Part shown: in pieces, positions 1-22,742 of the stretch | Position numbering within the stretch: the first letter of the stretch is position 1 | Layout of the letters: each line of letters begins with the position of its first letter | Assembly: GCA_964546105.1 (NCBI GenBank) | Contig: CAZJIP010000004.1 | Coordinates: 3,633 to 37,210, forward strand | DNA length: 33,578 nucleotides | Direction: 5' to 3' | Origin: an uncultured Methanomassiliicoccales archaeon | GTDB taxonomy: Archaea; Thermoplasmatota; Thermoplasmata; RBG-16-68-12 | Notes under the pieces: model-generated | What the model was told of the DNA's origin: nothing | The model's database searches: none | What the model saw: only the letters and a program-made list of their open reading frames with translations | Program-made: the position numbers and the translations under genes

Positions 1-82
1 TCGCGAGGATGGTCTTCCCGTCCTCCAAGAGGACGGCCCTCGTGCTCTTCGCGCCGACATCGATTCCCGCGGTAACCGTCAA
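1..82 (-). CDS. Partial CDS, 5' end only: second ATP-dependent activator subunit (BcrA/BcrD/BadFG ASKHA family), probably benzoyl-CoA reductase subunit D
   Basis: Not in the ORF track. TTG at 82 with GGAGG at 90-94 (minus strand). It reads MTVTAGIDVGAKSTRAVLLEDGKTILA, carrying the GIDvG phosphate-1 motif, and runs off the window edge. Confidence 0.8.
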   Translation of the reverse strand, partial: MTVTAGIDVGAKSTRAVLLEDGKTILA

Positions 83-95
83 CGCAGCGCCTCCA

Positions 96-902
96 TCAGA
101 CCACCACGGAGGCCGTCGCCTTCTCGAGGGCGAACTGGGCCGCGCCGAGGGCCCCGCAGAACATCGTGAGGGGATCGACGTTCAGCAGGACCCCGAGCTG
201 CTCCTCCAGACACCTCTTCATCCCGCGGTTGAGGGAAACGCCCCCGGTGAACGTTAGCTCCGGTTCGATGCCAACCCGCCGCACGAGCCCGATCGCCCGG
301 CTCGCGATGGCCGCGTGCACGCCGTAGAGGATGTCCTCGAGGCGGTGTCCCCAGGCGAGCTGCTCCTGGGTCTCCATTTCGGCGAAGACCGCGCAGGTGC
401 TGGAGATCTTGACCGGTTGCGTCGACTGGAGGGAGATGTCGCCTACTTCGGCGAGGCTCAGCCCCAGCGCCCGCGCCGCGCCCTCGATGAACCGCCCCGT
501 CCCCGCGGCGCACTTGTCGTTCATGCAGAAGTCCACCACGTCGCCGCGGCCATCGATCCGGATGGCCTTTGTGTCCTGCCCTCCCATGTCGAGGACCGTC
601 CGCGTCTGGGGAAAGAGGAAGTGAGCCCCCCTGGCATGACAAGCGATTTCCGTGACCTGGGCCTTACCGAACGTAATCTTGTAGCGGCCATATCCGGTGC
701 CGACGGCGAAGGCGACGTCCGCTTCCCCGAGGCCGGCCTTCTCGAGCGCGTCGGCATAGACCTTCTTCGCCGCGGCCAAGATGTTCACGCCGGTCATGTC
801 GATCGCCGTCGCGACGAGTTTTCCGTGATCGTCCACGACCGCCGCCTTCGTGTAGGTCGAGCCCGCGTCGACCCCCGCGAACCACGAACCCTGCCTGGGC
901 AT
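96..902 (-). CDS. ATP-dependent electron-activator subunit of benzoyl-CoA reductase (BcrA/BadF-like, single ASKHA module)
   Basis: Motifs GVDAGSTYTK, GTGYGR, TEIACHARGA, DMGGQDTK, MNDKCAAGTG, STCAVFAE and FTGGV. Start reassigned to the ATG at 902, which has GGAGGT upstream and lies just after the bcrB stop. Confidence 0.88.
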   Translation of the reverse strand: MPRQGSWFAGVDAGSTYTKAAVVDDHGKLVATAIDMTGVNILAAAKKVYADALEKAGLGEADVAFAVGTGYGRYKITFGKAQVTEIACHARGAHFLFPQTRTVLDMGGQDTKAIRIDGRGDVVDFCMNDKCAAGTGRFIEGAARALGLSLAEVGDISLQSTQPVKISSTCAVFAEMETQEQLAWGHRLEDILYGVHAAIASRAIGLVRRVGIEPELTFTGGVSLNRGMKRCLEEQLGVLLNVDPLTMFCGALGAAQFALEKATASVVV

Positions 903-906
903 GGCC

Positions 907-2178
907 TCAGGACCTCCCGCGCACGGAGAGCGTCTCGAAGAACGCATCCACGCGGTTCCTCGTCTGGGCCTCGCTGAAGTATCTCGGATCCACGTGGTCG
1001 GATTCGATGAGCAGGGTGGGGATGTCGCACTCCTTCGCGAGGTACTCCCGGATGTCCCCCTGGCCCATGGAGAAGGACCGGCAGCTCTTGATCGAGTGGA
1101 TCACGACACCGTCCGCGGCATAGTCCCGCACGTAGCGCTCGATGAGATGCGTCCGCAAGGGCATGTTCCAGTTGCAGTACGCATGGATCATGTACTCGGC
1201 GAGGGACTCCATCGGCCTCGCCGGATCGAGTCGGAAGGAGCCGGTGTCCACCATCCCCGCGACCTTAGGATACGTGGAGGCCACGGCCCGCGCGTTGTGT
1301 TCTCTGAAGAGACCCCAGAAGCGCTTGAAGAAGGGATAGTTGGGCACCCCTTCGAAGACGAGGCGATACCGCTCCTCCGCCGTCGGGCCCACGCCGGCCT
1401 CGGCCCGTCGCTCGAGTTCATCGAGCAGGGTGCGGTAGAAGCCGACGCATTCCTCGCTCCCCCGGGCGAATGTGATGGGCGCCATGTAGTAGATGGACTC
1501 AAAGTACGCGTCGAACGGGGTGGGCCGCCGCTTCCCCATCTCGAGGCAACGGCGCCACAATTCCCAGGCCTTGGCCGACCGCCCGATCGACTCCCTGAGT
1601 CGCTCCTCGTCCAGGCGCCGGCCCGTGAGCTTCTCGAGCCGGCCGACGAACTCCCAGAGCTGCGCGGCGACATAGTCGATGTCGTGCTTTGGAACCCCGC
1701 CCTCGTAGTCCCGCAGGTAGGGGATATCTAGCACGAAGATCGGCGCGCCCGTCCGGTAGTGGAGCTGCTCCCACCAGTGGATGTAGATCTGGCAGCCCGA
1801 GTAGGAGAGGAGGAGGACGTCGGGCTTCGGGACCGGCCCGATGACCGTCTGGACGTTATCCATAGCCGCGGCGATGCCCATCTTCACGTACCCGCAGGCA
1901 TCCGTGGAGTAGCCCGCCTCCTCCGCGAGCGCGATGAGGGGCGGGGCGCCGCCGCGGTAGGAGATGTTGAGCGAGGTGATCTCCGGATACAGCGGCAGGA
2001 TGTCGAAGGCGCTCAGGATCTCGATGGGGTTCGCCATGACGAACGCATAGCCGATCTTCCGCGAGCCACGGACCGCGGGATTGGAGAGGGATTCCATGTA
2101 GGCCTTGATGAGGTCGCCCTGGAGGTGCTTCGCCCGGTCGAACTCAGGCGGGACGGGCGCCGAGGCGGTCGCTGCCAT
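907..2178 (-). CDS. bcrB: Benzoyl-CoA reductase subunit B (2-hydroxyacyl-CoA dehydratase family, Thauera BcrB-like)
   Basis: AEEAGYSTDACGYVK, PDVLLLSYSGC, HSIKSCRSFSMGQ and IESDHVDPRYFS match BcrB signatures as I recall them. Clustered with the activators and dch/had/oah. Confidence 0.85.
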   Translation of the reverse strand: MAATASAPVPPEFDRAKHLQGDLIKAYMESLSNPAVRGSRKIGYAFVMANPIEILSAFDILPLYPEITSLNISYRGGAPPLIALAEEAGYSTDACGYVKMGIAAAMDNVQTVIGPVPKPDVLLLSYSGCQIYIHWWEQLHYRTGAPIFVLDIPYLRDYEGGVPKHDIDYVAAQLWEFVGRLEKLTGRRLDEERLRESIGRSAKAWELWRRCLEMGKRRPTPFDAYFESIYYMAPITFARGSEECVGFYRTLLDELERRAEAGVGPTAEERYRLVFEGVPNYPFFKRFWGLFREHNARAVASTYPKVAGMVDTGSFRLDPARPMESLAEYMIHAYCNWNMPLRTHLIERYVRDYAADGVVIHSIKSCRSFSMGQGDIREYLAKECDIPTLLIESDHVDPRYFSEAQTRNRVDAFFETLSVRGRS

Positions 2179-2209
2179 GGACTTCCGTCGCTTCCCTGAT
2201 CCCTATGGC

Positions 2210-2241
2210 GTCCAGGTAGACTTCTATCTTTACGTCTGGAC
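2210..2241. promoter_or_regulatory. Imperfect inverted repeat, candidate repressor operator
   Basis: GTCCAGGTA-N12-TACGTCTGGAC lies immediately downstream of the TATA box and spans the expected transcription start. Confidence 0.4.
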
Positions 2242-2257
2242 TTATATAAATCGCTTC
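2242..2257 (-). promoter_or_regulatory. Archaeal BRE/TATA promoter of the bcrB operon
   Basis: The minus strand reads GAAGCGATTTATATAA about 65 nt upstream of the bcrB ATG, an AT-rich island in GC-rich DNA. Confidence 0.7.
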
Positions 2258-2289
2258 CACCCAGCCTGGACCACGGGACCCGGCGCCCC

Positions 2290-3063
2290 TCACTTGTGCT
2301 TCCACGCCGGTTTCCGCTTCTCCAGGAAGGCGTTCAGGCCCTCAAGGGCGTCCTCCGTTCGCATGAGCTCCGTCAGGTAGCGGCGGGAGGAGGCCTTCAC
2401 CGCCTGTTCCCATCCGAGGGAGAGTCCCTTGAGAGAGGCCTGCTTCGCGAGCTGAAGCACCACCCGGCTCTTTGACGTCAAGGAATCTAGGAGGGCGCGA
2501 TGTGCGGCTCCGAGCTCCGCCTCGGCGTGCACGGAGGTCACGAAGCCCAAGGACGCGGCCTCCTCCGAGGTCAGGGTTCTCCCGGTGAGCACGAGGTCGT
2601 ACGCCCGGTGCAGCCCCACGAGGCGAGGATAGAGAGCGGCGGCGACCGGCGGGAACACGCCCACTGAGACCTCGGGCTGGCCGAAGGTCGCCTTGTCACT
2701 CGCGAGCACGAAATCGCACGCCATGGCAAGCTCCATGCCGCCGCCGAGGCACTTGCCGCGCACGACCGCCACGGTGGGCCTGGGGAACGCGAGCACCTGG
2801 AGGACGAGCCGCTCCAAGCTCCCAATGAGCCGCTCGACCGTCGCAGGCAGATGCTCCCGCACATCGGCTCCCGCGCTGAAGACGCCCTCGATACCGGATT
2901 CCAGCACGACCACTCCCACCTCGCCCTCGCCGGCCAGCTGGTCGACCCGAGCCGACAACTCCTCCATCATGGCGAGGTTGAGGATGTTCAGCGGCGGCCT
3001 CGAGAGGACGAGGGATGCCACGGCGCCTTCCCTCCGAACCTGAACGAGCTCGGTGGGGGACAT
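2290..3063 (-). CDS. dch: Cyclohexa-1,5-diene-1-carbonyl-CoA hydratase (crotonase family)
   Basis: Crotonase motifs FSAGADVREH, CLGGGMELA and GQPEVSVGVFPP, which are Dch-like. Follows had in the operon. Confidence 0.8.
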   Translation of the reverse strand: MSPTELVQVRREGAVASLVLSRPPLNILNLAMMEELSARVDQLAGEGEVGVVVLESGIEGVFSAGADVREHLPATVERLIGSLERLVLQVLAFPRPTVAVVRGKCLGGGMELAMACDFVLASDKATFGQPEVSVGVFPPVAAALYPRLVGLHRAYDLVLTGRTLTSEEAASLGFVTSVHAEAELGAAHRALLDSLTSKSRVVLQLAKQASLKGLSLGWEQAVKASSRRYLTELMRTEDALEGLNAFLEKRKPAWKHK

Positions 3064-3071
3064 GGACGCTC

Positions 3072-4091
3072 CTAGGGGATGACGAGTTGCCGGCCCATGA
3101 CGGTGCCCGCCTCGAGCCTCGCGAGAGCCTCGTTGACCTGCTCAAGCCGGAGGCGGTCTCCGACGACCGGCTCGAGCCGGATCTTCCCCGCACGCACCAT
3201 CTGTAGGATGGCGGGGTAGTCCGTCGACCGACATCCCAAGGAACCCACGACGGACATTTCCCGGAACATCACGCGGTGGACCGCGAAGTTCCATGTCTCC
3301 TCGCTGTAGCCCACCGTGACCAACGTGCCCCCGGGGCGGACGGATCCGAATGCCTGGTCCAGCACCTGCGGCTTTCCGACGATTTCGAAGGCCGTGTCGA
3401 CACCGCCTCCGGTCATCTTCCGGATCGCCTTCGGCACGTCACCTTCCTTGGGGTTGAGCGCCTCCCTCGCGCCGAGCTCCCGTGCCAGGGCCAGCTTCTT
3501 CGGATCGATATCCACCGCGATGACCGTCGCGCCAAGTGCCGCGGCAATCTGGACCGCGTTGATCCCAACGCCCCCGCAACCGAAGATCGCGACCCAATCG
3601 CCGCCCTGGACATGGCCGCGGTTCCGGACCGCGTGAAAGGGCGTCGATACGGCATCCGAGATGACGGCGCTCTCCTGAAGCGGGAGTCCCTCCGGGAGCG
3701 GGATGAGGCCGCGGGCGGGGACCTTCAGGAACTCCGCGAACCCGCCGTCCGCGTGGTTGCCCGGCATGACCATCCGATCGCAGAGGTTGTCCCGTCCCCG
3801 CCGGCAGTTCAGGCAATCCCCGCACGAGAGGACCGCAGGGACGAGCACGGTCTGTCCGGGGGCCACAGACGCGACGCCTGGGGCGACGGCCTCGACCCAT
3901 CCTGAGACCTCGTGGCCGAGGATGAGCGGCGGCTTCTTGAAGGTCGGCGTCCCGTGCAGGTAGTGCAGGTCCGTCGCGCACACCCCGCAGGCCGCCACCT
4001 TGATGAGGGCGTCTCCGGCGACGAGCGTGGGCGTCTCGACCTCCTCAATCGTCAACGGCTTCCCGGGGCCTTGAAAGACGGCCGCCTTCAA
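3072..4091 (-). CDS. had: 6-hydroxycyclohex-1-ene-1-carbonyl-CoA dehydrogenase (Zn-dependent MDR alcohol dehydrogenase)
   Basis: Motifs ACGVCATD, LGHE, CGDCLNCRRGRDNLC, MPGNHADGGFA and GCGGVG. The true start is TTG at 4091, overlapping the oah stop (TTGA). The track's 426-aa version is over-extended. Confidence 0.82.
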   Translation of the reverse strand: MKAAVFQGPGKPLTIEEVETPTLVAGDALIKVAACGVCATDLHYLHGTPTFKKPPLILGHEVSGWVEAVAPGVASVAPGQTVLVPAVLSCGDCLNCRRGRDNLCDRMVMPGNHADGGFAEFLKVPARGLIPLPEGLPLQESAVISDAVSTPFHAVRNRGHVQGGDWVAIFGCGGVGINAVQIAAALGATVIAVDIDPKKLALARELGAREALNPKEGDVPKAIRKMTGGGVDTAFEIVGKPQVLDQAFGSVRPGGTLVTVGYSEETWNFAVHRVMFREMSVVGSLGCRSTDYPAILQMVRAGKIRLEPVVGDRLRLEQVNEALARLEAGTVMGRQLVIP

Positions 4092-5155
4092 GGGCTGGCC
4101 CCCGTCAGCTTGGCCCCGCACTTCAGGCAGTACTCCGAGGATTGGGGCAAATGGGCGGCGCCGCATTTCGGGCAGCGGCCACTGTAGGGGCCGTAGGGAT
4201 ACCGCGGATCCAGACCGCGGCCGATCTCCTCGCGGACGGCGCGGTACCTGCGCGGCCGCTTCTCGAGGAACGCGGAGAGGCCCTCCACGGGCTCGATGGA
4301 CCCGAGGTTCAGGGAGAAGAACTCCTTCGCGTGCTCCCAGGTGGGCCGCCACACGATGTCACGCCACCAGTTCATGTGGACCTTGAAGTAGTGCAGGCTC
4401 GTGGGCGAGAGGTCGAGCATCGCGTCAATCATCTCGCGCACCCTCGAATCCAGAGTGTCGAGCGACACCACGTCGTTCACGATCCCCCACTCGAGGGCTT
4501 TCCTCGCATCGATCTCCTGGCTCAGCATGACCAGCTCCGCGGTCCGCTTCAGGCCCATGTGGAGGGGCAGCCACTGGGACAGCCCGCCGATCGAGGTCAT
4601 CCCGACACGAGGACCCGGGGAAAGGAACCGCGCGTGGTCCGCGGCGACTGCGAGATCCGCGGCGGCCACGAATTCCAGGCCGCCTCCGGCCACCACGCCG
4701 TTGATCCGGCAGAGGACGGGCTTGCCGCAGTGAAGGATCGAGTCCAGGAACCGCCCGTAGATCTCCCCCCACTTCCACCAGTCGCTGGGCTTCTTCCCGT
4801 ACTCGTTGGCGTACTCGTCCGCGTTTCCTCCCGTGGAGAAGGCCTTGTCCCCGCTCCCGGTGAGAACGATGAACTGGACGTCGTCGTCCCACATCGCCCC
4901 GTCGAACGCGGAGATCAACTCCTTCAGCGTCGTGAGCGTGTAGGAGTTGTGTTGCTTGGGACGATCGATCGTTACCAGCGCCGTGTGGTCGTGCCAGCCC
5001 GTCTCGTAGCGGATTTCACGATAGGGCCCAGGACCGGCCGACTCCCCGTTTCCACCCTTCGTCATGGTTTGCTTCCCCGTGGGGCGGGCGCGGTCCTCTC
5101 CGGGCGATGGCGGCGCTTGACCCACAGCCCTGGCCTCGTCCGCGGGGATGGCCAT
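4088..5155 (-). CDS. oah: 6-oxocyclohex-1-ene-1-carbonyl-CoA hydrolase (ring-opening, Oah/BamA/BzdY family)
   Basis: Motifs NSYT, GDKAFSTGGNADEYA and KPVLCRING, plus the C-terminal zinc ribbon CPKCG...YCLKCG typical of Oah. The start may instead be the ATG at 5065. Confidence 0.85.
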   Translation of the reverse strand: MAIPADEARAVGQAPPSPGEDRARPTGKQTMTKGGNGESAGPGPYREIRYETGWHDHTALVTIDRPKQHNSYTLTTLKELISAFDGAMWDDDVQFIVLTGSGDKAFSTGGNADEYANEYGKKPSDWWKWGEIYGRFLDSILHCGKPVLCRINGVVAGGGLEFVAAADLAVAADHARFLSPGPRVGMTSIGGLSQWLPLHMGLKRTAELVMLSQEIDARKALEWGIVNDVVSLDTLDSRVREMIDAMLDLSPTSLHYFKVHMNWWRDIVWRPTWEHAKEFFSLNLGSIEPVEGLSAFLEKRPRRYRAVREEIGRGLDPRYPYGPYSGRCPKCGAAHLPQSSEYCLKCGAKLTGASP

Positions 5156-5262
5156 GATGCGTATTAGTCCTTGCTCCGCTCGCCCTAGCCGTTTCCCGCT
5201 TCGCGGCGGTCTGCGCGTCGCCCGGGCATCTTATATCGACCGCAACGCGTATCCGCTCTCCT

Positions 5263-6303
5263 ATGTCGCGCCCGAGATCGCGTCAGCCGACGGTCCGCAG
5301 ACTCCAGTTCATCAAGGGAGGGAGCCGGACCGTGACCATCCCCCGATGGTGGGTGACGCGCCATGATCTCTCCAAAGGCTCCCGCCTGTTCATGGCCGAG
5401 GACGGCACGTCCCTTCGGATTGCCCCCATCGACGTCCTGCGGGAGAGGCGGAAGGTCCGCATCAACCTGGACGCCCTGGAGGACACGAAGTCCGTCAAGT
5501 ACCGCGTGTGGACCTACTACATGCAGGGTGCCGACCAGATCGAGGTGAGGTCGGAGGGGACCATCCCGGCCGACGTCAAGCGCCCCCTCCGGGAAATCCG
5601 GCTGGACCTACCGGGGTTCGAGGTGCTGGCCGAGCACGGTCAATCGATCACCTTCTGCGTCCGGGGAGCGGACGAGCGAAGGCGCCTGGACGATCTCATC
5701 GGCGACATCCAGAGGATCGCGTTGTCCGTCCATGCGGACGGCATGAAGGCGGTTACGAGCGGAGACGCCTCACTGGCCGCCGAGGTGGTCACGCGGGAGG
5801 CGGAGATCCTGCGAAGCTACCGGGCTATGATCCGGAAACTCGCGCTCTGCAGCATGAATCCCGAGGCGGCTCATGAAAGCGGCGTAAAGGACAGCCGAGA
5901 ACTCATCACCTACGCCCTCCTCGCGCGCGACCTGAACCGAACCGTCTACCACGGCATCTACATCGCGCGACACATGACTAGGTTCAAGGGGAGCATTGAG
6001 CAGGGGATCGAGCGCATGCTCCGGTCCATGTCCGACGTCGCTCAAACCATGCAGACACTCGCAGTTGAAGCCTTCCTGGGGAGGGATTATTCGAAAGCCC
6101 AGCGGGTCATGAAGCTCATGACGCGCATCCGGAACCTCGACGACACCCTGAGCCTGCGAATCCTCAATCAGGCGAAAGACGTGAGGAAAGCCGTCACCGA
6201 AATGCTCATCGCTCGGGAGATCCGCCGCATCGCGGGGTACAGCGTCGCGATGGCTGATGCGACAGCCAACCGAGTCCTCTCCTCCGACACGGACGCAGGA
6301 TGA
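5263..6303 (+). CDS. Archaeal AbrB/PhoU-domain regulator (phosphate uptake regulator family)
   Basis: N-terminal AbrB-like RRLQFIKGGSRTVTIPRWWV, then YYMQGADQIEV and two helical PhoU repeats (REIRRIAGYSVAMAD). CTTATAT lies about 27 nt upstream, suggesting a leaderless transcript. Confidence 0.85.
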   Translation: MSRPRSRQPTVRRLQFIKGGSRTVTIPRWWVTRHDLSKGSRLFMAEDGTSLRIAPIDVLRERRKVRINLDALEDTKSVKYRVWTYYMQGADQIEVRSEGTIPADVKRPLREIRLDLPGFEVLAEHGQSITFCVRGADERRRLDDLIGDIQRIALSVHADGMKAVTSGDASLAAEVVTREAEILRSYRAMIRKLALCSMNPEAAHESGVKDSRELITYALLARDLNRTVYHGIYIARHMTRFKGSIEQGIERMLRSMSDVAQTMQTLAVEAFLGRDYSKAQRVMKLMTRIRNLDDTLSLRILNQAKDVRKAVTEMLIAREIRRIAGYSVAMADATANRVLSSDTDAG

Positions 6304-6356
6304 ACAAGGAGGCTCCGCGGCCTCCCGCCCGCAAACGGAGGCAACCGAACGGGAAC

Positions 6357-7364
6357 CTATGGTGGGGACGCGGCGCGAGCTTGCCGCCACAGCTCCGTCA
6401 GCGCCAAGCGAACGTACAGATGCGCAACCCGCTTCCGGTGGTAGGGAGTGAGGTCCGTATTGTCCATGGGTTTCACGGCCTCGAAGACGGCCTTTGCCGC
6501 CCTCTCGACGAGGTTGTCGCTGAGGCGGCTCCCGACCAAGACGCGCTCCGCTTCCCCGATCTCGATGGGGGACGGCGCCACCGCGCCCACTACGATCCGG
6601 ACGAAGTCGCATCGTCCGCTCGGATCAATCCGCGCGGCGACCGCCAGCCCGAGAACCGGGAAGTCGGTCGATCCGCGACGACGGAGCTTCAGGTACGTGC
6701 TGAGGAGCCCGCCGGGCGGAGGGAGGACTACCTCTGCCAGAATCTCGTCCGCGGTCTTGTTGAGGTGCGCGATCCCGTCGTCCCGGAAGAACCCCCGCAT
6801 GGGAATCGTGCGTTCTCCTCGAACGCTCACCAGCCGCACACGTCCTCCGAGGGCAATGGCCACCGGCGCAAGGTCCGACGAGGACACGGCCCAGCATCGC
6901 GTGCTCCCGGGCGCCACACGGCAGACGTCCCCGTCCTTCTTCAGGCAGAAATCGACGGCTTGCCTCCAGAGGTAGGACTGGTCATAGTAGTTGCAGCGGG
7001 TGTCCGAGCAGAGGTTCCCGCCGACCGTGGCCATGGCGCGGATCTGCGGGGTTGCCACGAGGCCGGCCGCTTGCTTCAGGGCAGGATATCCCGCCGCGAC
7101 GGTTTGGTCCTGGATGAGCTCCTGAAGCGTCGTCATCGCGCCGATCGTGAGGCCACCGTCTCTGTTCCGCCGGATCCCGCGGAGCTCCTGGACCCTGCGG
7201 AGGCTCACGACTGCCTTGGGCTCAACGAGCTTGCGCTTCATGGACGGGTACAGGTCCGTGCCGCCGCCCACGAAGGCAGCGTGCCCTCCCGGCTCGGCGA
7301 TGAGCCGGACGGCCTCTTGGAGTGTGCGAGGCACGTGGTGGTCGAAGCCCGGGAGCCGCAGCAT
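6357..7364 (-). CDS. hcrB: 4-hydroxybenzoyl-CoA reductase beta subunit (FAD, extra 4Fe-4S)
   Basis: Starts MLRLP. Motifs GGGTDL and ATVGGNLC are followed by the HcrB-specific Cys insert RCNYYDQSYLWRQAVDFCLKKDGDVCRVAPGSTRC. TAATG overlap with hcrA. Confidence 0.88.
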   Translation of the reverse strand: MLRLPGFDHHVPRTLQEAVRLIAEPGGHAAFVGGGTDLYPSMKRKLVEPKAVVSLRRVQELRGIRRNRDGGLTIGAMTTLQELIQDQTVAAGYPALKQAAGLVATPQIRAMATVGGNLCSDTRCNYYDQSYLWRQAVDFCLKKDGDVCRVAPGSTRCWAVSSSDLAPVAIALGGRVRLVSVRGERTIPMRGFFRDDGIAHLNKTADEILAEVVLPPPGGLLSTYLKLRRRGSTDFPVLGLAVAARIDPSGRCDFVRIVVGAVAPSPIEIGEAERVLVGSRLSDNLVERAAKAVFEAVKPMDNTDLTPYHRKRVAHLYVRLALTELWRQARAASPP

Positions 7365-9760
7365 TACTCCGCCACCTCCCCAGGGATGAGGGTGTCGTCG
7401 GCAGGCGGGGCGACCTTCAGGGGCTCCTTCGTGATCGGGAGAGCCGGGAATCCTCGGGGGCCGACGCGGGGCCGCCCGTGGCCCCGCCTCTGTTCCTCGA
7501 GGGCCCGTAGAATCTTGTCCGGCGTCATGGGGACCTCGTCGACGCGCACCCCGACGGCGTCGTAGAGCGCGTTGGCCAAGGCGGGGGCCACCGGGAGGAG
7601 CGGCCCTTGGCCCACTTCTTTGGCGCCGAACGGGCCCTCTGGGTCCACAGTCTCCACGAGGATCGTGTGGATTTCGGGCATCTCCAGGATCGTAGGCACC
7701 TTCTGATCGAGGATGGAAGGGGACTTCAGGAGCCCGCCTCGGAAGGCTTGCTGCTCAAGGAGCGCTTCTCCGAGGGCCATGCACACGCTGCCCTCAATCT
7801 GGCCCTCGACGGCCCGCACGTTGATCGCGCGGCCGATGTCGTGCGCGAGCCAGATCTCGTCCGCGGCCAGGAAGCCCGTCTCCGTGTCGCATGTCGCCTC
7901 GATGACGCACGCGGAGAAGCTGTAGGCCGGCGACGGCCCGACACCGGCGCCCTTGTAGGGCCCCGCGAGCTTCGGCGGCTTGTACGACCCCCTCGCTATG
8001 ACGGGCCCGCGGCTCGCCGCCGCGGCGACCGCTTCCTCCCACACGAAGCCGTGGTGCCGGTCCGACGCGTCGCAGATGCGCCGACCCTTCGCGACCAGAC
8101 GCTCCGTCGGCACATCGAGTTTCCGGGCCACGGCCTCGAAGACGGCCTCTCTCGCCTTCGTGGCCGCCGAGAGAGCGGCATTCCCCGCCATGAACGTCAC
8201 GCGGCTCGAGTAGCTCCCGAGGTCCGTGGGCGTGCATTCCGTGTCTGCCACGACGACCTCAATCTCGGCGGGTTCGAGCCCGAGGACCTCCGCCGCAATG
8301 AAGGCGAGCATCGAGGTGGACCCCTGCCCGATGTCGCTCGCCATGGAAGACACGATGACGTGGCCCGTCGGGTCGATCCGGACTTCCACCTCGGAATGCG
8401 GGTTGTCGTTCCACCAGATCGGGAGCGCGGCGCCCGAGAGGTAGGCACTGACCGCCAGCCCGATGCCCTTCCCCCGCGGAAGATGCCCGCGCTTCTCGCG
8501 GAACTTCGACGCCTCGAGCACCCTCTCCATGCAATCCTTCAACCCGCAACTCGTGACGCGCAGGTGGTTCACGGTCATCGAGAACGGGCGCATGAGGTTG
8601 CGGAAGCGGAGTTCCGCCGGGTCGATACCGAGGTCCTCGGCGGCTTTGTCGAGGTGGGCCTCGAGGGCGAAGCGAGGCTGCGGCGTCCCGTGGCCGCGCT
8701 TCGGACCACAGGGCGGCTTGTTCGTGAACACCCGGACCCCTTCGAATTTGTATGCCGGGATCCGGTACGTGGTCGGCTGTAGCGCACCCGTGTAGTACGT
8801 CGACGCGACGCCGTAACTGCCGTAGGCGCCGCCGTCCAAGATTGACCGGAAGTGCATGGCGGTGATGCGGCCGTCCCTCGTGAACCCCGTGCGGATCTTC
8901 ATGAGCACGGGATGCCGGCCGCGGTGGAGGTAGAACACCTCTTCCCGGGAGCAGACGATCTTCACGGGCCTGCGCGTGACGATGGACAATTCCGCGGCGA
9001 CCAGCTCGTGGGGGAAGATGTCGCTCTTCCCTCCGAACCCGCCGCCGACGGGCGGTGCGATGACCCGGATCCGGTTCCTGGGGAGGCCGAGGACCTTTTC
9101 CAGGGCGCCTTGCAAGTAGAAGGGCACCTGGGTGGACGACCACACGGTGAGCTTGCCGCCCGCATCGTAGGAGGCGAGGACGGCATGCTGCTCCATGGCG
9201 ACGTGGTTGCTGCCCTCGTAGAAGAACACGTCCTCGCGGACGTGGGCCGCGCTCGCAAATCCTCCCTCCACGTCGCCGAACTCGAGGTTCACCGCCTTGT
9301 GGATGTTCGTGCTGTCCGCCTGGTCGTGGATGCGGACGGTCCGATTCTGCAGGGCCTCTTCGATCGACATGATGGCCGGCAGAGGCTCGTATTCGACGCG
9401 GATGGCCTCCAACGCCCGTTCCGCGGTCTCCTCGTCGTCCGCAGCCACGGCCGCCACAGGCTCTCCGACGTAGCGAACAACGTCCTCGGCCAGGGCCGTC
9501 TCGTCCTGGCTGACGGGCAGGATGCCGTACTTGACCGGAAGGTCGCGCCCGGTGACGACCGCACGGATTCCGGCCGTGACCTGTGCCCGACTCGTGTCGA
9601 TCCTCACGATGCGTGCATGGGGATGGGGGCTCCGAAGCAACCGGCCGAAGAGCATTTCAGGGAGAACGAGATCCTCCGCATACCGAGCCTGGCCCGTCGT
9701 CTTCCCCAGAGAATCGACCTTGGGCAAAGGTTTCCCGATGACGCTCAGGTCGCCCGACAT
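7364..9760 (-). CDS. hcrA: 4-hydroxybenzoyl-CoA reductase alpha subunit (molybdopterin-binding, xanthine oxidase family)
   Basis: Motifs VGGGFGGK, KRGHGTPQ (RGHG loop), DIGQGS, GSYSSRVTFMAGNA and GPFGAKEVG. Lies between hcrC and hcrB. Confidence 0.87.
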   Translation of the reverse strand: MSGDLSVIGKPLPKVDSLGKTTGQARYAEDLVLPEMLFGRLLRSPHPHARIVRIDTSRAQVTAGIRAVVTGRDLPVKYGILPVSQDETALAEDVVRYVGEPVAAVAADDEETAERALEAIRVEYEPLPAIMSIEEALQNRTVRIHDQADSTNIHKAVNLEFGDVEGGFASAAHVREDVFFYEGSNHVAMEQHAVLASYDAGGKLTVWSSTQVPFYLQGALEKVLGLPRNRIRVIAPPVGGGFGGKSDIFPHELVAAELSIVTRRPVKIVCSREEVFYLHRGRHPVLMKIRTGFTRDGRITAMHFRSILDGGAYGSYGVASTYYTGALQPTTYRIPAYKFEGVRVFTNKPPCGPKRGHGTPQPRFALEAHLDKAAEDLGIDPAELRFRNLMRPFSMTVNHLRVTSCGLKDCMERVLEASKFREKRGHLPRGKGIGLAVSAYLSGAALPIWWNDNPHSEVEVRIDPTGHVIVSSMASDIGQGSTSMLAFIAAEVLGLEPAEIEVVVADTECTPTDLGSYSSRVTFMAGNAALSAATKAREAVFEAVARKLDVPTERLVAKGRRICDASDRHHGFVWEEAVAAAASRGPVIARGSYKPPKLAGPYKGAGVGPSPAYSFSACVIEATCDTETGFLAADEIWLAHDIGRAINVRAVEGQIEGSVCMALGEALLEQQAFRGGLLKSPSILDQKVPTILEMPEIHTILVETVDPEGPFGAKEVGQGPLLPVAPALANALYDAVGVRVDEVPMTPDKILRALEEQRRGHGRPRVGPRGFPALPITKEPLKVAPPADDTLIPGEVAE

Positions 9761-9769
9761 GTGCCGTCC

Positions 9770-10324
9770 TCACCTCGTCCGTCTTCGACGCGCGCCGCGG
9801 ATTGCGCTCATCGGCTTCACGTTCCGGGCACCCGACCTCTGCGCCCCTTCGAGGCGCATCTCTTCGGCTGCGTCTCGGACCGCCTGGAGGATCTTCGGGT
9901 AACAGCCGCAGCGGCACACATTGCCGGAAAGGCCCCACCGGATTTCATCGTCGCTTGGCGACGGGTTGGCCCTGAGGAGGGCCAGGGAGGACATGATCAT
10001 GCCCGGGGTGCAGTAGCCGCATTGCGCGCCCCCGAGGTCCGCGAAGGCCAGCTGGAGCGGATGGGGTTCTCCGTTCGCCTGGACGATCCCCTCAATCGTC
10101 GTGATCGCCCGGCCCTCGACGTCCGCCGCGAGGGTTATGCAGGAGAGATAGGGCTCGTCATCAACGAGGACTGTGCAGGCCCCGCACTCGCCGAGCTCGC
10201 AGCCGTGCTTCGTGCCCGTGAGGCCCAGATTCTCCCTCAGGACCTCCAAGAGGGTCCGGCTTGCCGGAGCCGTGACCTCCCGGGTCTCGCCGTTGACGCG
10301 GAGGAGCATCCTCAGTGCGGCCAC
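9770..10324 (-). CDS. hcrC: 4-hydroxybenzoyl-CoA reductase gamma subunit (2x 2Fe-2S)
   Basis: Motifs GTKHGCELGECGACTV, QCGYCTPG and GNVCRCGCY. Likely start is GTG at 10324 (GAGGAG upstream) or ATG at 10309. Confidence 0.87.
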   Translation of the reverse strand: MAALRMLLRVNGETREVTAPASRTLLEVLRENLGLTGTKHGCELGECGACTVLVDDEPYLSCITLAADVEGRAITTIEGIVQANGEPHPLQLAFADLGGAQCGYCTPGMIMSSLALLRANPSPSDDEIRWGLSGNVCRCGCYPKILQAVRDAAEEMRLEGAQRSGARNVKPMSAIRGARRRRTR

Positions 10325-10762
10325 GCTTCCCGGTCTCCTCGTCCGCAATCACGTGGAGATGTCTTAGGCTTATCGAAATCTCGGTGACGCGCAAGCCGGG
10401 GTTCATTCCCTCCCGCGGCTGGGCGGAACTCCTTCCATTCCCACACGTCGACCCACCCAAGACGAGAAAGCGCTCGTTCCCGGGAGGGGTCTCGAGGGGC
10501 CGAGGGAAAGGGATGTCAGGGCGGACCTGAGACCATCGGTCCGCGAGCGGCAGGGCGGGAGGATTTCCTCCCGCGTCAGGGGCGCTGCTCAATCTATACC
10601 CCATCGACCGGCAACCATCCTTCGCTTCGCGGTAGGGACAATCATGCCACGCTCCGTGGACGGACCCTCGGGGCCCCTGACCCAACCCTGCGCAATCACG
10701 GGGAAGGGGAGGATTCAAGTCCCCCCACGACGTTGACGGTGGCCAGGGGAAGCGGGGCCGTT

Positions 10763-12073
10763 ATGGAGGACGAGCGCCTCGTCCACAACTACATTGTCGA
10801 GCGGGGCCTGGCGGCGAACTTCCCCGCAGAGGTCCTCATCTGGGACGAGACCATGCGGGATGGGGAGCAAACCCCGGGCGTGGCCTTCTCCCCGGAGGAG
10901 AAGCTCCAGATCGCGACCCTCCTGGACGAGATGGGCGTGCCTCTGATGGACGTGGGGATTCCGGTGGTGTCCAAGGAGGAGGCCCGCGGGGTGAAGACGA
11001 TCGCCCATGCCGGACTCGACGCGTCGATCATGGCCGCGGCGCGCGCGGTCCGAAAGGACGTCGAGGCATGCATCGAGTGTGAGGTGGACGAAGTCTCCGT
11101 CTTCATTGCCTGCTCCGATCTGCACCTGAAGTACAAGCTCAATATGACGCACGAGCAGGTCAAAGAGGCCGCCGTGCGGGAGACGGAATACGCGAAGGAT
11201 CACGGCCTCAAGGTGTCCTTCGTCACGGAGGACACATTCCGAGCGGACATCGACTACGTCGTCGAGCTGTACAACGCCTGCATCGAGGCCGGTGCGAGCC
11301 GCGCCGTGCTCTGCGACACCGTCGGGGTGATGACGCCCGCAGGGATTCGGTGGTTCATGGAGCAGGTCAAGCCGCGGTTCCACAAGGTCCAGCTCTCCTT
11401 CCACGGCCACAACGACTTCGGCCTCGCAGTGGCCAACAGCCTCGCCGCGATTGAGGCTGGCGTCGAAGTGCCGCACACGTGCGTGAACGGCCTTGGCGAG
11501 CGCTCCGGGAACGCCAGCTTTGAGGAGCTCGTCATGGCCCTCGAATCCCTCTACGGATACAGGACGGGCGTGGACGTGTCGCGCATGTACGAGGTCTCGA
11601 GGCTCGTTGAGAACCTCAGCGGCATCCCCGTCGGCGTGAACAAGGCCGTCGTTGGCTACAACGCCTTCAGCCACGAGTCCGGCATCCATGCGGACGGCGT
11701 GATCAAGCACACCGCGACGTACGAGCCCATTCAGCCCGAGCGGATCGGACGGACACGACAGTTCATCTATGGGAAACACACCGGCTCAGCCTCGGTCGCG
11801 GAGAGACTGAAGTCGAGGGGCGTCGAAGCGTCCAGCGAGCAAGTCCAGAACCTCGTGCAGCTCATCAAGGAATATTCGGAGGGGAAGTCCAAGATAGATG
11901 CCCAGGCGTTCATCGAGCTGTTCCGGGAGCGGGAGGAGCGCCGTCGCGGAATTACCGAGGATGAGTTCTGGGTCTTGACGAAGCGCGCCGGCATCCCTCT
12001 GCCGAAAGGGATAGAACCGGCCTTCCCGAGGTATGACCTCAGACTGCCAAAGCGCCCCGGGTCCTTGTCTTAG
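10763..12073 (+). CDS. DRE-TIM metallolyase of the homocitrate/isopropylmalate/citramalate synthase family, lacking the C-terminal regulatory domain
   Basis: Motifs DETMRDGEQTPG, LCDTVG, HGHNDFGLA, NGLGERSGNA, HESGIH and GKHTG. Start taken as the ATG at 10763. Confidence 0.88.
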   Translation: MEDERLVHNYIVERGLAANFPAEVLIWDETMRDGEQTPGVAFSPEEKLQIATLLDEMGVPLMDVGIPVVSKEEARGVKTIAHAGLDASIMAAARAVRKDVEACIECEVDEVSVFIACSDLHLKYKLNMTHEQVKEAAVRETEYAKDHGLKVSFVTEDTFRADIDYVVELYNACIEAGASRAVLCDTVGVMTPAGIRWFMEQVKPRFHKVQLSFHGHNDFGLAVANSLAAIEAGVEVPHTCVNGLGERSGNASFEELVMALESLYGYRTGVDVSRMYEVSRLVENLSGIPVGVNKAVVGYNAFSHESGIHADGVIKHTATYEPIQPERIGRTRQFIYGKHTGSASVAERLKSRGVEASSEQVQNLVQLIKEYSEGKSKIDAQAFIELFREREERRRGITEDEFWVLTKRAGIPLPKGIEPAFPRYDLRLPKRPGSLS

Positions 12074-14974: not shown

Positions 14975-15047
14975 GGTCTGATCGACCGGGCCGATGGCGG
15001 GTCTCGTAATGAAGCCTGCGGCCGGCCCTGGCCGCACCCGAATCGAA

Positions 15048-15932: not shown

Positions 15933-16067
15933 GGGGAAGGCTAGGGCGCGGCGATATATAAGGGGCCTCTACGAAACCCCGTAGCCATGGAAGCCCGCGG
16001 AATTAGGGCGGCCTAACTCGGAGCACGGAATCCCGCGGGCGCGAAGCATGTCCATGGAACTGAGGCC

Positions 16068-16445
16068 TCATTGCAGCAACTCAATCCAGATCCCATCGGG
16101 GTCCTTGACGTAGACCTCCGTGTCCTTGGAGTCCGCCGGACTCACCGCGACGTCCACGCCCTTCCGGGTCAGTTCGCGATAGGCCTTCCGCACGTCGTCC
16201 ACGACGAAGGCCAGGTGGTCCATCTCCTCTCCGACCCGGTAGGGTGTGTAGAACCGGCTGCTCTCCGGGTACCAGTTCAACTCGAGCCGCTGCTGAGAAC
16301 CGGGGGTGCGCAGATGCACGTACCGGCCTCCATGAGGCATGGTCCCCTCGCCGATGACCCGCATGCCTAATACGTCCGTGTAGAAAGCCCGGGAGCGTTC
16401 CAAGTCGCGGACCCGGATTCCCGTATAGTGGGACTTGGCTCGCAT
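16068..16445 (-). CDS. VOC/glyoxalase family protein
   Basis: Motifs IRVRDLERSRAFYTDVLGM, LELNWY, DHLAFVVDDV and VKDPDGIWIEL. Start reassigned to the ATG at 16445. Confidence 0.9.
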   Translation of the reverse strand: MRAKSHYTGIRVRDLERSRAFYTDVLGMRVIGEGTMPHGGRYVHLRTPGSQQRLELNWYPESSRFYTPYRVGEEMDHLAFVVDDVRKAYRELTRKGVDVAVSPADSKDTEVYVKDPDGIWIELLQ

Positions 16446-16507
16446 GGAGCCGCCATGGGGGTACCCCACGATAGCCGAGATGCCGCCGAAGGACGGGGAA
16501 GCAGGGT

Positions 16508-21733: not shown

Positions 21734-21744
21734 GCTCCCCCACC

Positions 21745-22734: not shown

Positions 22735-22742
22735 CGACTCCC

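Follow-up and report, generated by a model that had tools for sequence, protein, structure and literature searches.

Among archaea, Ferroglobus placidus is the experimentally studied case, with an ATP-dependent class I reductase, Dch, Had and Oah, and a 4-hydroxybenzoyl-CoA reductase; its class I reductase is of the Azoarcus bzd type. F. placidus grows on aromatics (PMC8163825), and class I bcr genes, sometimes with dch/had/oah, have been predicted in uncultured archaeal genomes (PMC9239135, PMC8163825), including bcrABCD in metagenomes of the Thermoplasmatota 'Ca. Yaplasmales' (PMC9239135) and in Hermodarchaeota, Bathyarchaeota and Thermoplasmata (PMC8163825). These two papers put bcr genes of Thermoplasmatota on record, so that Ferroglobus is not the sole archaeal context; the first-pass annotation of the DNA described here had named it as the main experimentally documented one. 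The word stem 'hydroxybenzo' is absent from the main text of the Yaplasmales paper (PMC9239135), and relative to that text four features could be new: the hcr linkage, the B-A-D-C version of the bcr genes, the regulator and the promoter elements.

We analyzed a window of 33,578 nucleotides from the metagenome-assembled genome (MAG) of an uncultured Thermoplasmata archaeon (66.7% GC; 82.6% completeness, 5% contamination, 290 contigs). Homology and conserved gene order, from which every step of the pathway is predicted, suggest that an island lying mostly in this window probably lets the archaeon strip the hydroxyl group from 4-hydroxybenzoyl-CoA and then, without oxygen, reduce the aromatic ring and open it. 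The island resembles the Thauera aromatica system (BcrCBAD, Dch, Had, Oah and HcrCAB; PDB 1RM6/1SB3) in its enzyme families and in the subunit composition of both complex enzymes. It differs from Thauera in bcr gene order (B-A-D-C versus C-B-A-D), in scores below the equivalog cut-offs, in a short A subunit, in a shorter, divergent crotonase in place of Oah, in having no linked ferredoxin or 2-oxoglutarate:ferredoxin oxidoreductase, and in its archaeal host, promoter elements and regulator. Compared with Ferroglobus, the host is a mesophile-like, GC-rich member of the Thermoplasmata with oxidase genes.

Organization of the island

The island covers about 12.4 kb, from bcrC (contig C4, position 1594) to hcrC (window position 10348). 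Within window positions 1-10,348 the minus strand carries hcrC-hcrA-hcrB, then oah-had-dch-bcrB-bcrA and the first 27 codons of bcrD, and a divergent AbrB/PhoU regulator lies between the hcr block and the oah-bcr block. To the left of the window, bcrD and then bcrC continue on contig C4, so the bcrC gene for which a genome search had been proposed is found next door. The 100-N scaffold gap just left of the window conceals a 55-nt overlap, identical at both contig ends, indicating that bcrB-A-D-C is contiguous; the bcrA 3' end, bcrD and bcrC are also uninterrupted on contig C164 of a related genome, G013. The best Pfam and NCBIfam matches of the nine enzyme genes are benzoyl-CoA pathway families (NCBIfam equivalogs), and none of the nine reaches the curated cut-off of its equivalog. 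The pathway assigned in the first-pass annotation thus survives as a complete-looking upper benzoyl-CoA pathway plus an Hcr-like enzyme, tempered by scores that are all below cut-off and by an unorthodox 'oah'. Two plus-strand ORFs, at 6300-7565 and 8852-10387, were rejected as genes, being antisense shadows without family matches.

Benzoyl-CoA reductase-like genes

BcrBADC is predicted to be a class I reductase of the Thauera/Mbd type, built from four subunits and driven by ATP, that would convert the ring to a cyclic dienoyl-CoA. The bcrB-like gene (907-2178, minus strand) encodes an HGD-D family subunit (PF06050, 244.9 bits) that scores 316.9 bits on TIGR02260 (cut-off 486.55), compared to 179.4 for HadB and 110.5 for BzdO. 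BcrB and BcrC match the Thauera-type models TIGR02260 and TIGR02263 best, and the scores for the bzd type, to which the Ferroglobus reductase belongs (BzdO as above, BzdN 104.2), fall far below the Thauera-type scores, a comparison made through family models. In an unrooted tree of 87 rows, BcrB lies within a 24-row clade (SH-aLRT 100) that includes two cluster representatives at 630 and 815 bits on TIGR02260, while HadB-like proteins and 30%-identical paralogues from sister families lie outside it. The BcrB phylogeny suggested at first pass therefore places the protein with enzymes over the BcrB cut-off and away from dehydratases; within the clade, the window's sub-clade stands apart from the rows over the cut-off, on a backbone without resolution. 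No HGD-D genes other than bcrB and bcrC are present in the genome.

Among solved enzymes, the reductase subunits come closest to those of MbdONQP, the 3-methylbenzoyl-CoA reductase (PDB 9g87, 9gai), which is bacterial and has a methylated substrate; identity is moderate, and the likeness is one of sequence. BcrB reaches 215.7 bits against MbdO (9g87_A). The bcrA-like gene (96-947, minus strand; probable true start at the ATG at 902) encodes an ATPase subunit of the BcrAD_BadFG family (PF01869, 213 bits), whose best solved match is MbdQ (9gai_D), the alpha subunit of the 3-methylbenzoyl-CoA reductase, at 310.9 bits, versus 215.5 for the activator HgdC. Both cysteines in the NDKCAAGTGRF and SSTC motifs are kept. 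BcrA scores 249.6 bits on TIGR00241, over the cut-off, and 213.6 on the BcrA model TIGR02259 (cut-off 578); it is short, at 283 aa or less, and aligns with the BcrA model, which has 432 positions, over 217-432 only. The 5' end of bcrD (1..82, minus strand; 27 codons at 2-82, with a TTG start at 82) translates as LTVTAGIDVGAKSTRAVLLEDGKTILA, and its final residues reappear as the first residues of the BcrD-like ORF across the gap to the left, where the gene runs on into contig C4. The 10-kb block reported at first pass, with hcrCAB, oah-had-dch, bcrB and two activators, is present at approximately those positions, with the correction that the 'activators' are bcrA and bcrD, ATPase subunits of the reductase rather than free-standing proteins.

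Predicted ring-opening and dehydroxylation genes

Downstream of the reductase step, Dch would hydrate the dienoyl-CoA, Had would oxidize the hydrated product, and a short, non-canonical Oah-like crotonase may open the ring to 3-hydroxypimeloyl-CoA. The dch-like enoyl-CoA hydratase gene (2290-3063, minus strand; PF00378) has TIGR03189 as its best NCBIfam match (174.7 bits, cut-off 292.5), followed by a generic hydratase at 160.2, and dch adjoins had and bcr in relatives. The had-like gene (3072-4091, minus strand; ORF open to 4352, with homology from about residue 88) encodes a Zn-dependent alcohol dehydrogenase (PF00107/PF08240) scoring 249.2 bits on TIGR03201 (cut-off 338.65) and 196.5 on AdhP. 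The oah-like gene (4088-5155, minus strand) encodes a crotonase of the MenB/BadI/Oah type; its homologues are 310-325 aa long, suggesting that the true start is probably some 30-40 codons downstream of 5155. Although it is the best TIGR03200 match in the genome, it scores 145.9 bits against a cut-off of 464.45 and aligns over the N-terminal half only (model positions 38-212 of 360). Other models score similarly (DpgD 137.4, two MenB models 131.8-132.0, BadI 116.4), its best solved relative in a PDB search is MenB (116.5 bits), and none of its homologues is named Oah in any source. Thus, this gene is not an orthodox oah. It shares a crotonase sub-group with BadI (2-ketocyclohexanecarboxyl-CoA hydrolase) and MenB; it shares 36% identity with plasmid genes that PGAP names BadI, and one JGI homologue is named BadI. 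However, it falls far short of the cut-offs for BadI and MenB, and its context is bcr-dch-had rather than the bad genes of Rhodopseudomonas or menaquinone genes.

HcrCAB, a predicted three-subunit molybdenum enzyme, would remove the para-hydroxyl of 4-hydroxybenzoyl-CoA to give benzoyl-CoA. The hcrC-like gene for the 2x[2Fe-2S] subunit (9770-10309, minus strand, with an ATG at 10309 and the ORF open to a TTG at 10348; PF01799/PF00111) scores 185.5 bits on TIGR03193 (cut-off 257.8). The hcrA-like gene for the molybdenum subunit (7364-9760, minus strand; PF02738/PF20256/PF01315) scores 869 bits on TIGR03194 (cut-off 994.55), and its product reaches 648 bits against the solved Thauera enzyme (1RM6_A), compared to 309.9 for the next solved enzyme. 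The hcrB-like gene for the FAD subunit (6357-7364, minus strand) scores 277.3 bits on TIGR03195 (cut-off 404.55); HcrB aligns end to end with 1RM6_B in a single stretch (198.2 bits), retaining its four-cysteine loop (residues ~119-157). This loop is absent from other family members, and its cysteines are kept in 74 of 74 HcrB homologues. In the Thauera structure the loop reportedly holds an additional [4Fe-4S] cluster, through which electrons can pass in the direction of the molybdenum.

Genes elsewhere in the genome, none of them specifically identifiable, would have to activate the substrate (through a CoA ligase or transferase), supply the electron donor and encode the lower pathway. As stated at first pass, the window lacks a CoA ligase and a ferredoxin: the window's ORFs have no AMP-binding matches (Pfam, NCBIfam), the contig has no ferredoxin gene, and the motif CxxCxxCxxxCP occurs in no frame of contig C4. 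The genome search proposed at first pass turned up neither a dedicated CoA ligase for aromatics nor a glutaryl-CoA dehydrogenase, with the benzoate-CoA ligase cut-off reached by none of six AMP-forming ligases (best 269.1 versus 375.25) and a glutaryl-CoA dehydrogenase cut-off by none of six acyl-CoA dehydrogenases (best 347.8 versus 470). CoA transferases and five 2-oxoacid:ferredoxin oxidoreductase alpha-type genes are present in the genome.

Regulator and promoter-like elements

Two archaeal TATA elements, one ahead of bcrB and the other in the divergent spacer, probably set where transcription starts, and the island is probably controlled by its own AbrB/PhoU regulator. The element ATTTATATAA (2242-2251, minus strand) lies in the spacer of 111 nt between dch and bcrB, 64 nt ahead of the bcrB ATG, and is a candidate internal promoter of bcrBADC. 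TTATAT (5231-5236, plus strand) is a putative promoter of near-leaderless layout, 26 nt upstream of the ATG of the regulator gene; no other A/T-rich element occurs in the divergent spacer, which is 107 nt long. Stretches of six A/T are rarer than expected (28 positions in 33.6 kb versus ~52 from composition), and two of the only three sites in 1-10.4 kb are these intergenic elements. The divergently transcribed regulator (5263-6303, plus strand) has a SpoVT/AbrB N-terminal domain (PF04014, 22.9 bits, slightly below the cut-off of 24.7) and two PhoU domains (PF01895, 66.6 bits in two stretches). Close copies (88-92% identity) are confined to G013 and a second genome, G014, where they sit next to the cluster; other matching genomes of the order carry 1-4 paralogues at 20-33% identity. 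With two TATA-like elements and a regulator family expanded in this lineage, the archaeal transcription signals proposed at first pass are supported.

Distribution and origin

The island is patchy: of 37 other species of the genus, two were found to carry it. Sister families of the order have hcr and bcr on separate contigs. The island differs from the sister-family version in gene order and tree position, so a lateral gain by a sub-lineage of the genus is most likely. A bacterial source, as claimed at first pass, does not follow: the nearest BcrB is in a MAG labelled archaeal, HcrA has a mixed set of nearest sequences, and none of the trees is rooted. Parts of the neighbourhood recur elsewhere. 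G034 has bcr, dch, had and the Oah-like gene together; in G039 the Oah-like gene directly adjoins bcrCBAD, on a contig that stops just past bcrD; and G038 has bcrCBAD-dch-had together with no Oah-like gene on its 9.3-kb contig. The bacterial locus L011 has the order hcrCAB-oah-dch-had-bcrCBAD, and locus L006 has bcrBADC near hcrCAB.

Substrate range and assembly

It is unlikely that these enzyme types act on other substrates, such as substituted (methyl-, hydroxy-, halo-) benzoyl-CoA, other para-hydroxylated aryl-CoA or partly reduced bicyclic CoA esters, which would make '4-hydroxybenzoate/benzoate' the wrong label. The missed equivalog cut-offs, the separate BcrB sub-clade and solved neighbours from 3-methylbenzoyl-CoA reductase, not benzoyl-CoA reductase proper, all speak for such substrates. 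The hcrCAB-like family is also widespread in soil bacteria, and two of five sampled hcr-bearing genomes have no BcrB-like match, suggesting that the family may act on other substrates. However, the dch-had-oah-like trio suits the unsubstituted dienoyl-CoA route and is kept beside bcr in several lineages, and HcrA and HcrB resemble the solved 4-hydroxybenzoyl-CoA reductase far more closely than they do any other family member with a solved structure. Since class I reductases are known for their promiscuity, turnover of benzoyl-CoA would still be probable. The same two genomes, together with sub-cut-off Hcr scores, the separate contigs in sister families and the presence of bcr genes inside the fetched flank in only 2 of 80 hcr-like loci (many flanks being short), could also fit an unrelated molybdenum hydroxylase (e.g. 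oxidative, aldehyde/heterocycle) that merely neighbours the reductase cluster. We regard this as improbable given the conserved four-cysteine loop, the adjacency of hcr and bcr in the window's genus and in two further, separate lineages (L006 and L011), oah-dch-had directly after hcrCAB in L011, and a BcrB-like gene elsewhere in the genome in the other three of five sampled genomes.

That bacterial DNA entered an archaeal bin by mis-assembly or mis-binning is very improbable, despite the bin's contamination and fragmentation, the scaffold gap within the cluster and bacterial MAGs among the nearest HcrA relatives outside the genus. The hcrC-leuA junction between island and housekeeping genes recurs in G013 contig C85 and is spanned by run-level contigs (X1 record 6, X3 record 22). 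HcrA-like and LeuA-like proteins are both recorded from public contigs of 21,773 and 31,454 nt, one of them labelled Thermoplasmata archaeon. The window is free of N, the gap is the 55-nt overlap, GC differs little between island and flank (0.62-0.68), and the TATA-like elements and the several regulator paralogues in most genomes of the order also point to an archaeal context. The contig is thus archaeal (Thermoplasmata) and not chimeric, which settles the taxonomy check proposed at first pass in favour of an archaeon. The window's first 20 kb is matched in all 24 sampled same-genus genomes (E <= 0.001), the matches listed having 66-87% nucleotide identity and lying mostly in the flanking housekeeping part, not the island. 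A TBP gene is found in the genome, as are haem-copper oxidase genes; given the latter, the host should be called facultative at most rather than an 'anaerobic archaeon'. Named relatives of the flanking LeuA-like protein are all archaeal. One relative of this gene, at 74% identity, is labelled RBG_16_68_13, which seems to echo RBG-16-68-12, the name of a group in the published Thermoplasmatota bcr predictions.

Organization of the hcr-bcr island

The genome that carries the island (G000) is a 2.39-Mb MAG in 290 contigs, with 66.7% GC, 82.6% completeness and 5% contamination. The window, taken from its contig C4 (positions 3633-37210), has an even GC content (0.62-0.68) and contains no N. Pfam and NCBIfam searches assigned two blocks of genes on the minus strand. 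The left block consists of bcrA-like (96-947), bcrB-like (907-2178), dch-like (2290-3063), had-like (3072-4091; ORF open to 4352, with homology starting at about residue 88) and oah-like (4088-5155) genes, and the right block of hcrB-like (6357-7364), hcrA-like (7364-9760) and hcrC-like (9770-10309; ORF open to 10348) genes. A regulator gene (5263-6303, plus strand) lies between them. Plus-strand ORFs at 6300-7565 and 8852-10387 had no family matches and were discarded as antisense shadows, which are usual in GC-rich DNA.

At its left edge the window ends inside bcrD, and positions 2-82 (minus strand) encode the BcrD N-terminus, LTVTAGIDVGAKSTRAVLLEDGKTILA. A 100-N scaffold gap immediately before the window (C4 3533-3632) splits bcrD in the record. 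The window opens with the same 55 nt that precede the gap (G000:C4:3478-3632), indicating that two overlapping contig ends were left unmerged and that no sequence is missing. Left of the gap are the gap-cut BcrD-like ORF, which starts with the final residues of the 2-82 translation, a BcrC-like gene (minus strand, C4 1594-2757) and, on the opposite strand, purF. By arithmetic across the overlap, the whole bcrD would have ~266 codons. In the independent assembly of a same-genus genome (G013, contig C164) the bcrA 3' end, bcrD (85% identity) and bcrC (82%) are contiguous. The overlap and the G013 contig together indicate that bcrB-bcrA-bcrD-bcrC is contiguous, so that the layout in transcription order is oah-had-dch, a 111-nt spacer and bcrB-bcrA-bcrD-bcrC. 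The first-pass annotation, which proposed an archaeal 4-hydroxybenzoate/benzoyl-CoA pathway, had made that reading depend on a bcrC gene, and bcrC is thus found just left of the window. The same annotation listed two activators; both genes are present, but they encode the reductase's two ATPase subunits.

The island enzymes are divergent relatives of benzoyl-CoA-pathway families

For every island enzyme the best NCBIfam match was a benzoyl-CoA-pathway equivalog, and every one scored below the curated cut-off of that equivalog. The scores were 869 bits against a cut-off of 994.55 for HcrA (TIGR03194), 277.3 against 404.55 for HcrB (TIGR03195), 185.5 against 257.8 for HcrC (TIGR03193), 316.9 against 486.55 for BcrB (TIGR02260), 304.4 against 421.15 for BcrC (TIGR02263), 213.6 against 578 for BcrA (TIGR02259) and 163.5 against 312.85 for the truncated BcrD ORF (range TIGR02259-02263). 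Dch reached 174.7 against 292.5 (TIGR03189), Had 249.2 against 338.65 (TIGR03201) and Oah 145.9 against 464.45 (TIGR03200). Judged by sequence, the island enzymes are divergent relatives of the benzoyl-CoA-pathway families.

The four Bcr subunits are encoded together, two of the HGD-D family (bcrB and bcrC, the only HGD-D genes in the genome) and two ATPases of the BcrAD/BadFG family (bcrA and bcrD). Azoarcus bzd-type models scored far lower than Thauera-type models (BzdO 110.5, BzdN 104.2). The nearest solved chains are those of 3-methylbenzoyl-CoA reductase: BcrB matched MbdO with 215.7 bits (HadB 148.1, BzdO 105.9), and BcrA matched MbdQ with 310.9 bits as compared to 215.5 for the dehydratase activator HgdC. 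In printed alignments of the BcrA-like subunit, both Cys-containing motifs are common to this protein, MbdQ and HgdC; in HgdC the cysteine pair ligates the bridging [4Fe-4S] cluster.

A plasmid collection searched as a source of tree references yielded no true BcrB or Oah; its BcrB-type matches were dehydratase-family genes of <30% identity only, and those on the Oah side were BadI/MenB-like (36%). We therefore used cluster representatives labelled by NCBIfam score. BcrB was searched against 1.84 billion representatives, and among the 119 full-length matches labelled in this way two exceeded the BcrB cut-off (P0245, 630 bits, 45% identity; P0246, 815 bits, 41%), one was sub-threshold (P0254) and three were HadB-like. 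The unrooted tree (IQ-TREE quick, LG+G4; BcrB only) had 87 rows, comprising the window protein, 10 from the fetched loci and 76 representatives with lengths of 380-460 aa, with fragments left out; like the HcrA tree described below, it was built without named Thauera, Rhodopseudomonas or Ferroglobus sequences. Window BcrB falls in a 24-row clade (SH-aLRT 100, stem length 0.45) that also holds P0245, P0246, the same-order orthologues and the protein of a bacterial locus (L011). HadB-like rows and 30%-identical paralogues of sister families are outside, and the tree does not resolve the backbone within the clade. The first-pass annotation had named a grouping with non-aromatic paralogues as evidence against its reading; BcrB groups instead with rows over the BcrB cut-off. 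In four genomes from other families of the order (G037, G032, G026 and G027; loci L092-L095) we observed paired HGD-D and activator-like genes that are ~30% identical to BcrB and fall outside the reductase clade.

The three Hcr subunits are also encoded together, and Pfam identifies 2x[2Fe-2S] (9770-10348), molybdopterin-binding (7364-9760) and FAD-binding (6357-7364) proteins. Among solved structures HcrA best matched the alpha subunit of Thauera 4-hydroxybenzoyl-CoA reductase (1RM6_A, 648 bits), followed by quinoline 2-oxidoreductase (309.9). HcrB aligned with 1RM6_B in a single stretch (198.2 bits) that includes its cysteine-rich insertion, CSDTRC...FC...VC...RC, and matches every cysteine of the loop. 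CO dehydrogenase, nicotinate dehydrogenase and other solved FAD subunits gave two-stretch alignments that skip HcrB residues about 121-161. At least four loop cysteines are found in all 74 HcrB homologues spanning the loop (four in 38, five in 32 and six in 4). In the Thauera structure this loop is reported to bind an extra [4Fe-4S] cluster, the feature that marks out the reductive enzyme.

The hcrCAB-like genes make up a large family. Many MAGs from soil and sediment carry members with 57-68% identity to window HcrA; they belong to Pyrinomonadaceae, Gemmatimonadales, Dormiibacterota, Chloroflexi, Armatimonadota and some archaea. Bacterial members from these habitats that have the four-cysteine loop (loci L004-L083, e.g. 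L025, L033 and L016) are usually without nearby bcr genes. The fetched flanks, several of them short, contain bcr genes in 2 of 80 hcr-like loci (L006 and L011). When five hcr-bearing genomes were searched whole, a BcrB-like gene was detected elsewhere in three (369.7, 297.6 and 211.6 bits, all below cut-off) and not found in two. The few loci with bcr and the two genomes in which BcrB was not found suggest that a link to ring reduction may not hold for the whole family; in the window, the link between hcr and ring reduction rests on adjacency.

A short crotonase as the candidate ring-opening hydrolase

The Oah-like protein is the weakest assignment of the island. Its TIGR03200 match covers only model positions 38-212 of 360, and other models score near its Oah score (DpgD 137.4, MenB 131.8-132.0 with two models, BadI 116.4 bits). 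The best solved relative is MenB, and an ESM Atlas look-up returned only a generic enoyl-CoA hydratase cluster. Homologues are 310-325 aa long and occur in archaeal MAGs (Thermoplasmata, Nitrososphaerota-labelled, Bathyarchaeia, MSBL1 and 'Caldarchaeum') as well as in Ardenticatenia, Acidobacteriota and others; none is called Oah by any source, and one carries the JGI name BadI. Given the partial model cover, the score of 145.9 against 464.45 and the short homologues, we rejected filing the protein as Oah/BamA. At the same time it is the best match to the Oah model in the genome (144.4 bits, with 81.2 for the next), and an orthodox Oah was not found when the genome was searched with this model.

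Gene position provides the argument for function. In two genomes from other families of the order (G034 and G039) a 46%-identical copy lies divergently beside bcrC-B-A-D; in G034 this cluster is followed by dch and had, as are the bcrCBAD genes on a 9.3-kb contig of a third genome (G038). In the bacterial locus L011 the Oah-like gene is located between hcrB and dch. Based on this conserved position beside bcr, dch and had, we infer that the crotonase works like Oah, i.e. in ring opening. A broader proposal, which we put forward tentatively and at somewhat less than an even chance, is that the 310-325-aa crotonases are a separate ring-opening hydrolase family replacing Oah/BamA in a widespread 'short-Oah' class I pathway (spread over Thermoplasmata, further archaeal MAGs and several phyla of bacteria), and that the present genome represents a facultatively aerobic archaeon that acquired a complete hcr-bcr island laterally and uses it for dearomatisation driven by ATP. 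If this is true, surveys based on bamA/oah markers or equivalog models would miss 'short-Oah' degraders.

Host, contig integrity and origin of the island

Several findings argue against a bacterial or chimeric contig, which was a further concern of the first-pass annotation. The genome encodes TBP, and all 24 sampled same-genus genomes match the first 20 kb of the window (E <= 0.001); among the matches listed, these lie mainly in the housekeeping part, with 66-87% nucleotide identity. Contig C85 of G013 has the same arrangement, in which the regulator 3' end is followed by hcrB-A-C, the LeuA-like gene and then other genes. The hcrC-leuA junction is bridged by run-level contigs (X1 record 6, 9630-11846; X3 record 22, 9620-10891), from runs of one sample of one study that are possibly the source of the assembly. 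The named relatives of the LeuA-like protein are all archaeal (Thermoplasmata archaeon, <=89%; 'Euryarchaeota archaeon RBG_16_68_13', 74%; Methanobacteriota archaeon), and an HcrA-like and a LeuA-like protein appear to lie together on each of two public contigs, of 21,773 and 31,454 nt, as judged from equal nucleotide sizes. The bin yielded no archaeal SSU rRNA, and searches of the window found neither a tRNA nor an Rfam match. A haloarchaeal host was rejected on the basis of ordinary predicted pI values.

The island is patchily distributed. A BcrB orthologue was detected in 2 of 37 other species of the genus (G013, 90%; G014, 94% over a partial gene) and, at E <= 1e-80, in 17 of 79 genomes of the order with G000 counted; these counts are from incomplete genomes, in which a missing match does not equal absence. 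Sister families have the order bcrC-B-A-D, with BcrB 46-54% identical and hcr on a separate contig, and thus two differing pathway versions are present within one archaeal order. The closest version to the B-A-D-C order of the window is L006, a locus from a MAG labelled Nitrososphaerales, which has the same order (BcrB 73%, BcrA 77% identical) and a much lower third-position GC (0.42-0.54). In the HcrA tree (FastTree, 80 sequences, unrooted) the window and G013 group with L006, two Acidimicrobiia, a Streptosporangiaceae MAG and two unclassified bacteria (8 rows, support 97), apart from the same-order archaeal HcrA sequences, which form another clade (support 100). The patchy spread and the differences in gene order and tree position relative to the sister families suggest that a sub-lineage of the genus likely gained the island laterally. 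The further claim that the genes are bacterially derived was not borne out: the trees are unrooted, the HcrA neighbours are mixed and the nearest BcrB, that of L006, is labelled archaeal. No empty insertion site could be defined, the LeuA-like gene having other neighbours (no PurF, Fic or ALDH) in four island-free same-genus genomes, and no flanking direct repeats were found at the island borders.

Locus L006 has additional features. Genes for 2-oxoacid:ferredoxin oxidoreductase alpha and beta subunits directly precede bcrB (L006:316-2507), an adjacency that recalls the Thauera arrangement. A 904-aa molybdopterin oxidoreductase is encoded between bcrC and hcrC, and MoeA, MobB and MobA-like cofactor genes follow hcrB (L006:13530-15925).

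Promoter-like elements and the regulator

Runs of six A/T are rare in the window (28 positions, with about 52 expected from composition), and only three sites are found in 1-10.4 kb, two of them intergenic. A TATA-like element, ATTTATATAA (2242-2251, minus strand), lies 64 nt upstream of the bcrB ATG. A second, TTATAT (5231-5236), is 26 nt upstream of the regulator ATG, a spacing that fits a leaderless or near-leaderless archaeal transcript. An archaeal TATA box is expected some 25-30 nt ahead of the point where transcription begins. As TTATAT is the only A/T-rich element of the 107-nt divergent spacer, this candidate element may also drive the oah operon. The hcrC gene is preceded only by a weaker A/T-rich patch. 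The non-coding stretch between hcrC and the LeuA-like gene (10349-10732) is unusually long (about 380-450 nt) and has no Rfam match and no strong A/T-rich element.

The regulator has an SpoVT/AbrB-like N-terminus (22.9 bits, cut-off 24.7) and two PhoU domains, and matches to it were found in 37 of 41 sampled genomes of the order, G000 counted. Its non-island paralogues, 1-4 per genome, are 20-33% identical; copies of 88-92% identity are found only in G013 and G014, adjoining the cluster. Related clusters have other regulators: the bacterial locus L011 carries an IclR protein and G034 an HTH_10 protein. The order-wide paralogues, the close copies restricted to the cluster and the different regulators of related clusters fit local recruitment of a native regulator.

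Remaining pathway steps and lifestyle

Absences are provisional in a genome that is 82.6% complete. None of its six AMP-forming ligases reaches the benzoate-CoA ligase cut-off (best 269.1, cut-off 375.25), and their best matches are all fatty-acid or acetate ligases. Similarly, none of six acyl-CoA dehydrogenases reaches a glutaryl-CoA dehydrogenase cut-off (best 347.8, cut-off 470). CoA transferases are represented by three family III matches and a two-subunit family I enzyme on contig C9. This two-subunit enzyme shares 41-43% identity with the transferase beside hcrC in L011, a weak lead towards activation by CoA transfer. Five 2-oxoacid:ferredoxin oxidoreductase alpha-type (POR_N) genes are located elsewhere in the genome, and no ferredoxin motif was found on contig C4. 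Neither a low-potential ferredoxin nor an oxidoreductase to regenerate it is linked to the bcr genes. The single UbiD-family gene is uninformative on carboxylation of phenol or 4-hydroxybenzoate.

Two haem-copper oxidase subunit I genes score over cut-off (G000:C206:2-715 and G000:C26:15690-17168). Their presence in the same bin as an oxygen-sensitive reductase points to either a facultative lifestyle or contaminant contigs; unless the oxidase contigs are contaminants, the organism would not be a strict anaerobe. Class I reductases are typical of facultative anaerobes, with which the oxidase genes fit. DNA of the archaeon is present in runs labelled mine drainage metagenome. The runs listed were four DNA runs of the same sample of the same study, with no RNA runs among them.

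Relation to previous work and significance

The earlier observation is confirmed, and homology, a single diagnostic structural feature, a single tree and conserved gene order give good support to the predicted pathway. Experiments have demonstrated archaeal degradation of aromatic rings without oxygen in very few organisms, but metagenomes increasingly predict it. Genes bcrABCD are reported in MAGs of 'Ca. Yaplasmales' (PMC9239135), in a paper whose main text does not contain 'hydroxybenzo', and together with dch, had and oah in Hermodarchaeota (PMC8163825); the latter paper also mentions that bcr had been found before in MAGs of Thermoplasmata and Bathyarchaeota. The hcr-bcr island, its B-A-D-C version and the short Oah-like family were not described in the open-access papers and preprints searched.

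The finding leaves known chemistry unchanged. It adds a clean and nearly complete predicted case, with both complex enzymes, the downstream trio, a regulator of its own and archaeal promoter-like elements on one contig, and offers specific candidates to express and assay. Annotation blind spots are exposed as well, since all island enzyme genes are under curated cut-offs and the ring-opening candidate is not an orthodox Oah. Details of note are this non-canonical candidate for the ring hydrolase, the breadth of the hcr-like family and the presence of two pathway versions in one order.

Other genes in the window

Immediately right of the LeuA-like gene that borders the island is a gene (12157-13086, minus strand) for a Fic-domain protein that is similar to 'mobile mystery protein B' (58.2 bits, under the cut-off) and weakly matches a XopAC/AvrAC-family model. 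An aldehyde dehydrogenase gene (13481-15037) and pirin and glyoxalase/dioxygenase-superfamily genes (15048-16580, minus strand) follow within a few kb of the island. A 271-aa basic protein (17938-18753, minus strand) has a partial, weak match to PriS, the archaeal primase small subunit (60 bits, below cut-off), and its gene is kept across the genus at 69-80% nucleotide identity. Two tandem Get3/ArsA-family ATPase genes are found at 20699-22746 (minus strand; 177 and 211 bits on TIGR00345). Finally, a 664-aa acidic (pI 4.4) beta-propeller protein (28786-30780, plus strand; PF09826, 436 bits) is probably secreted or surface-located.
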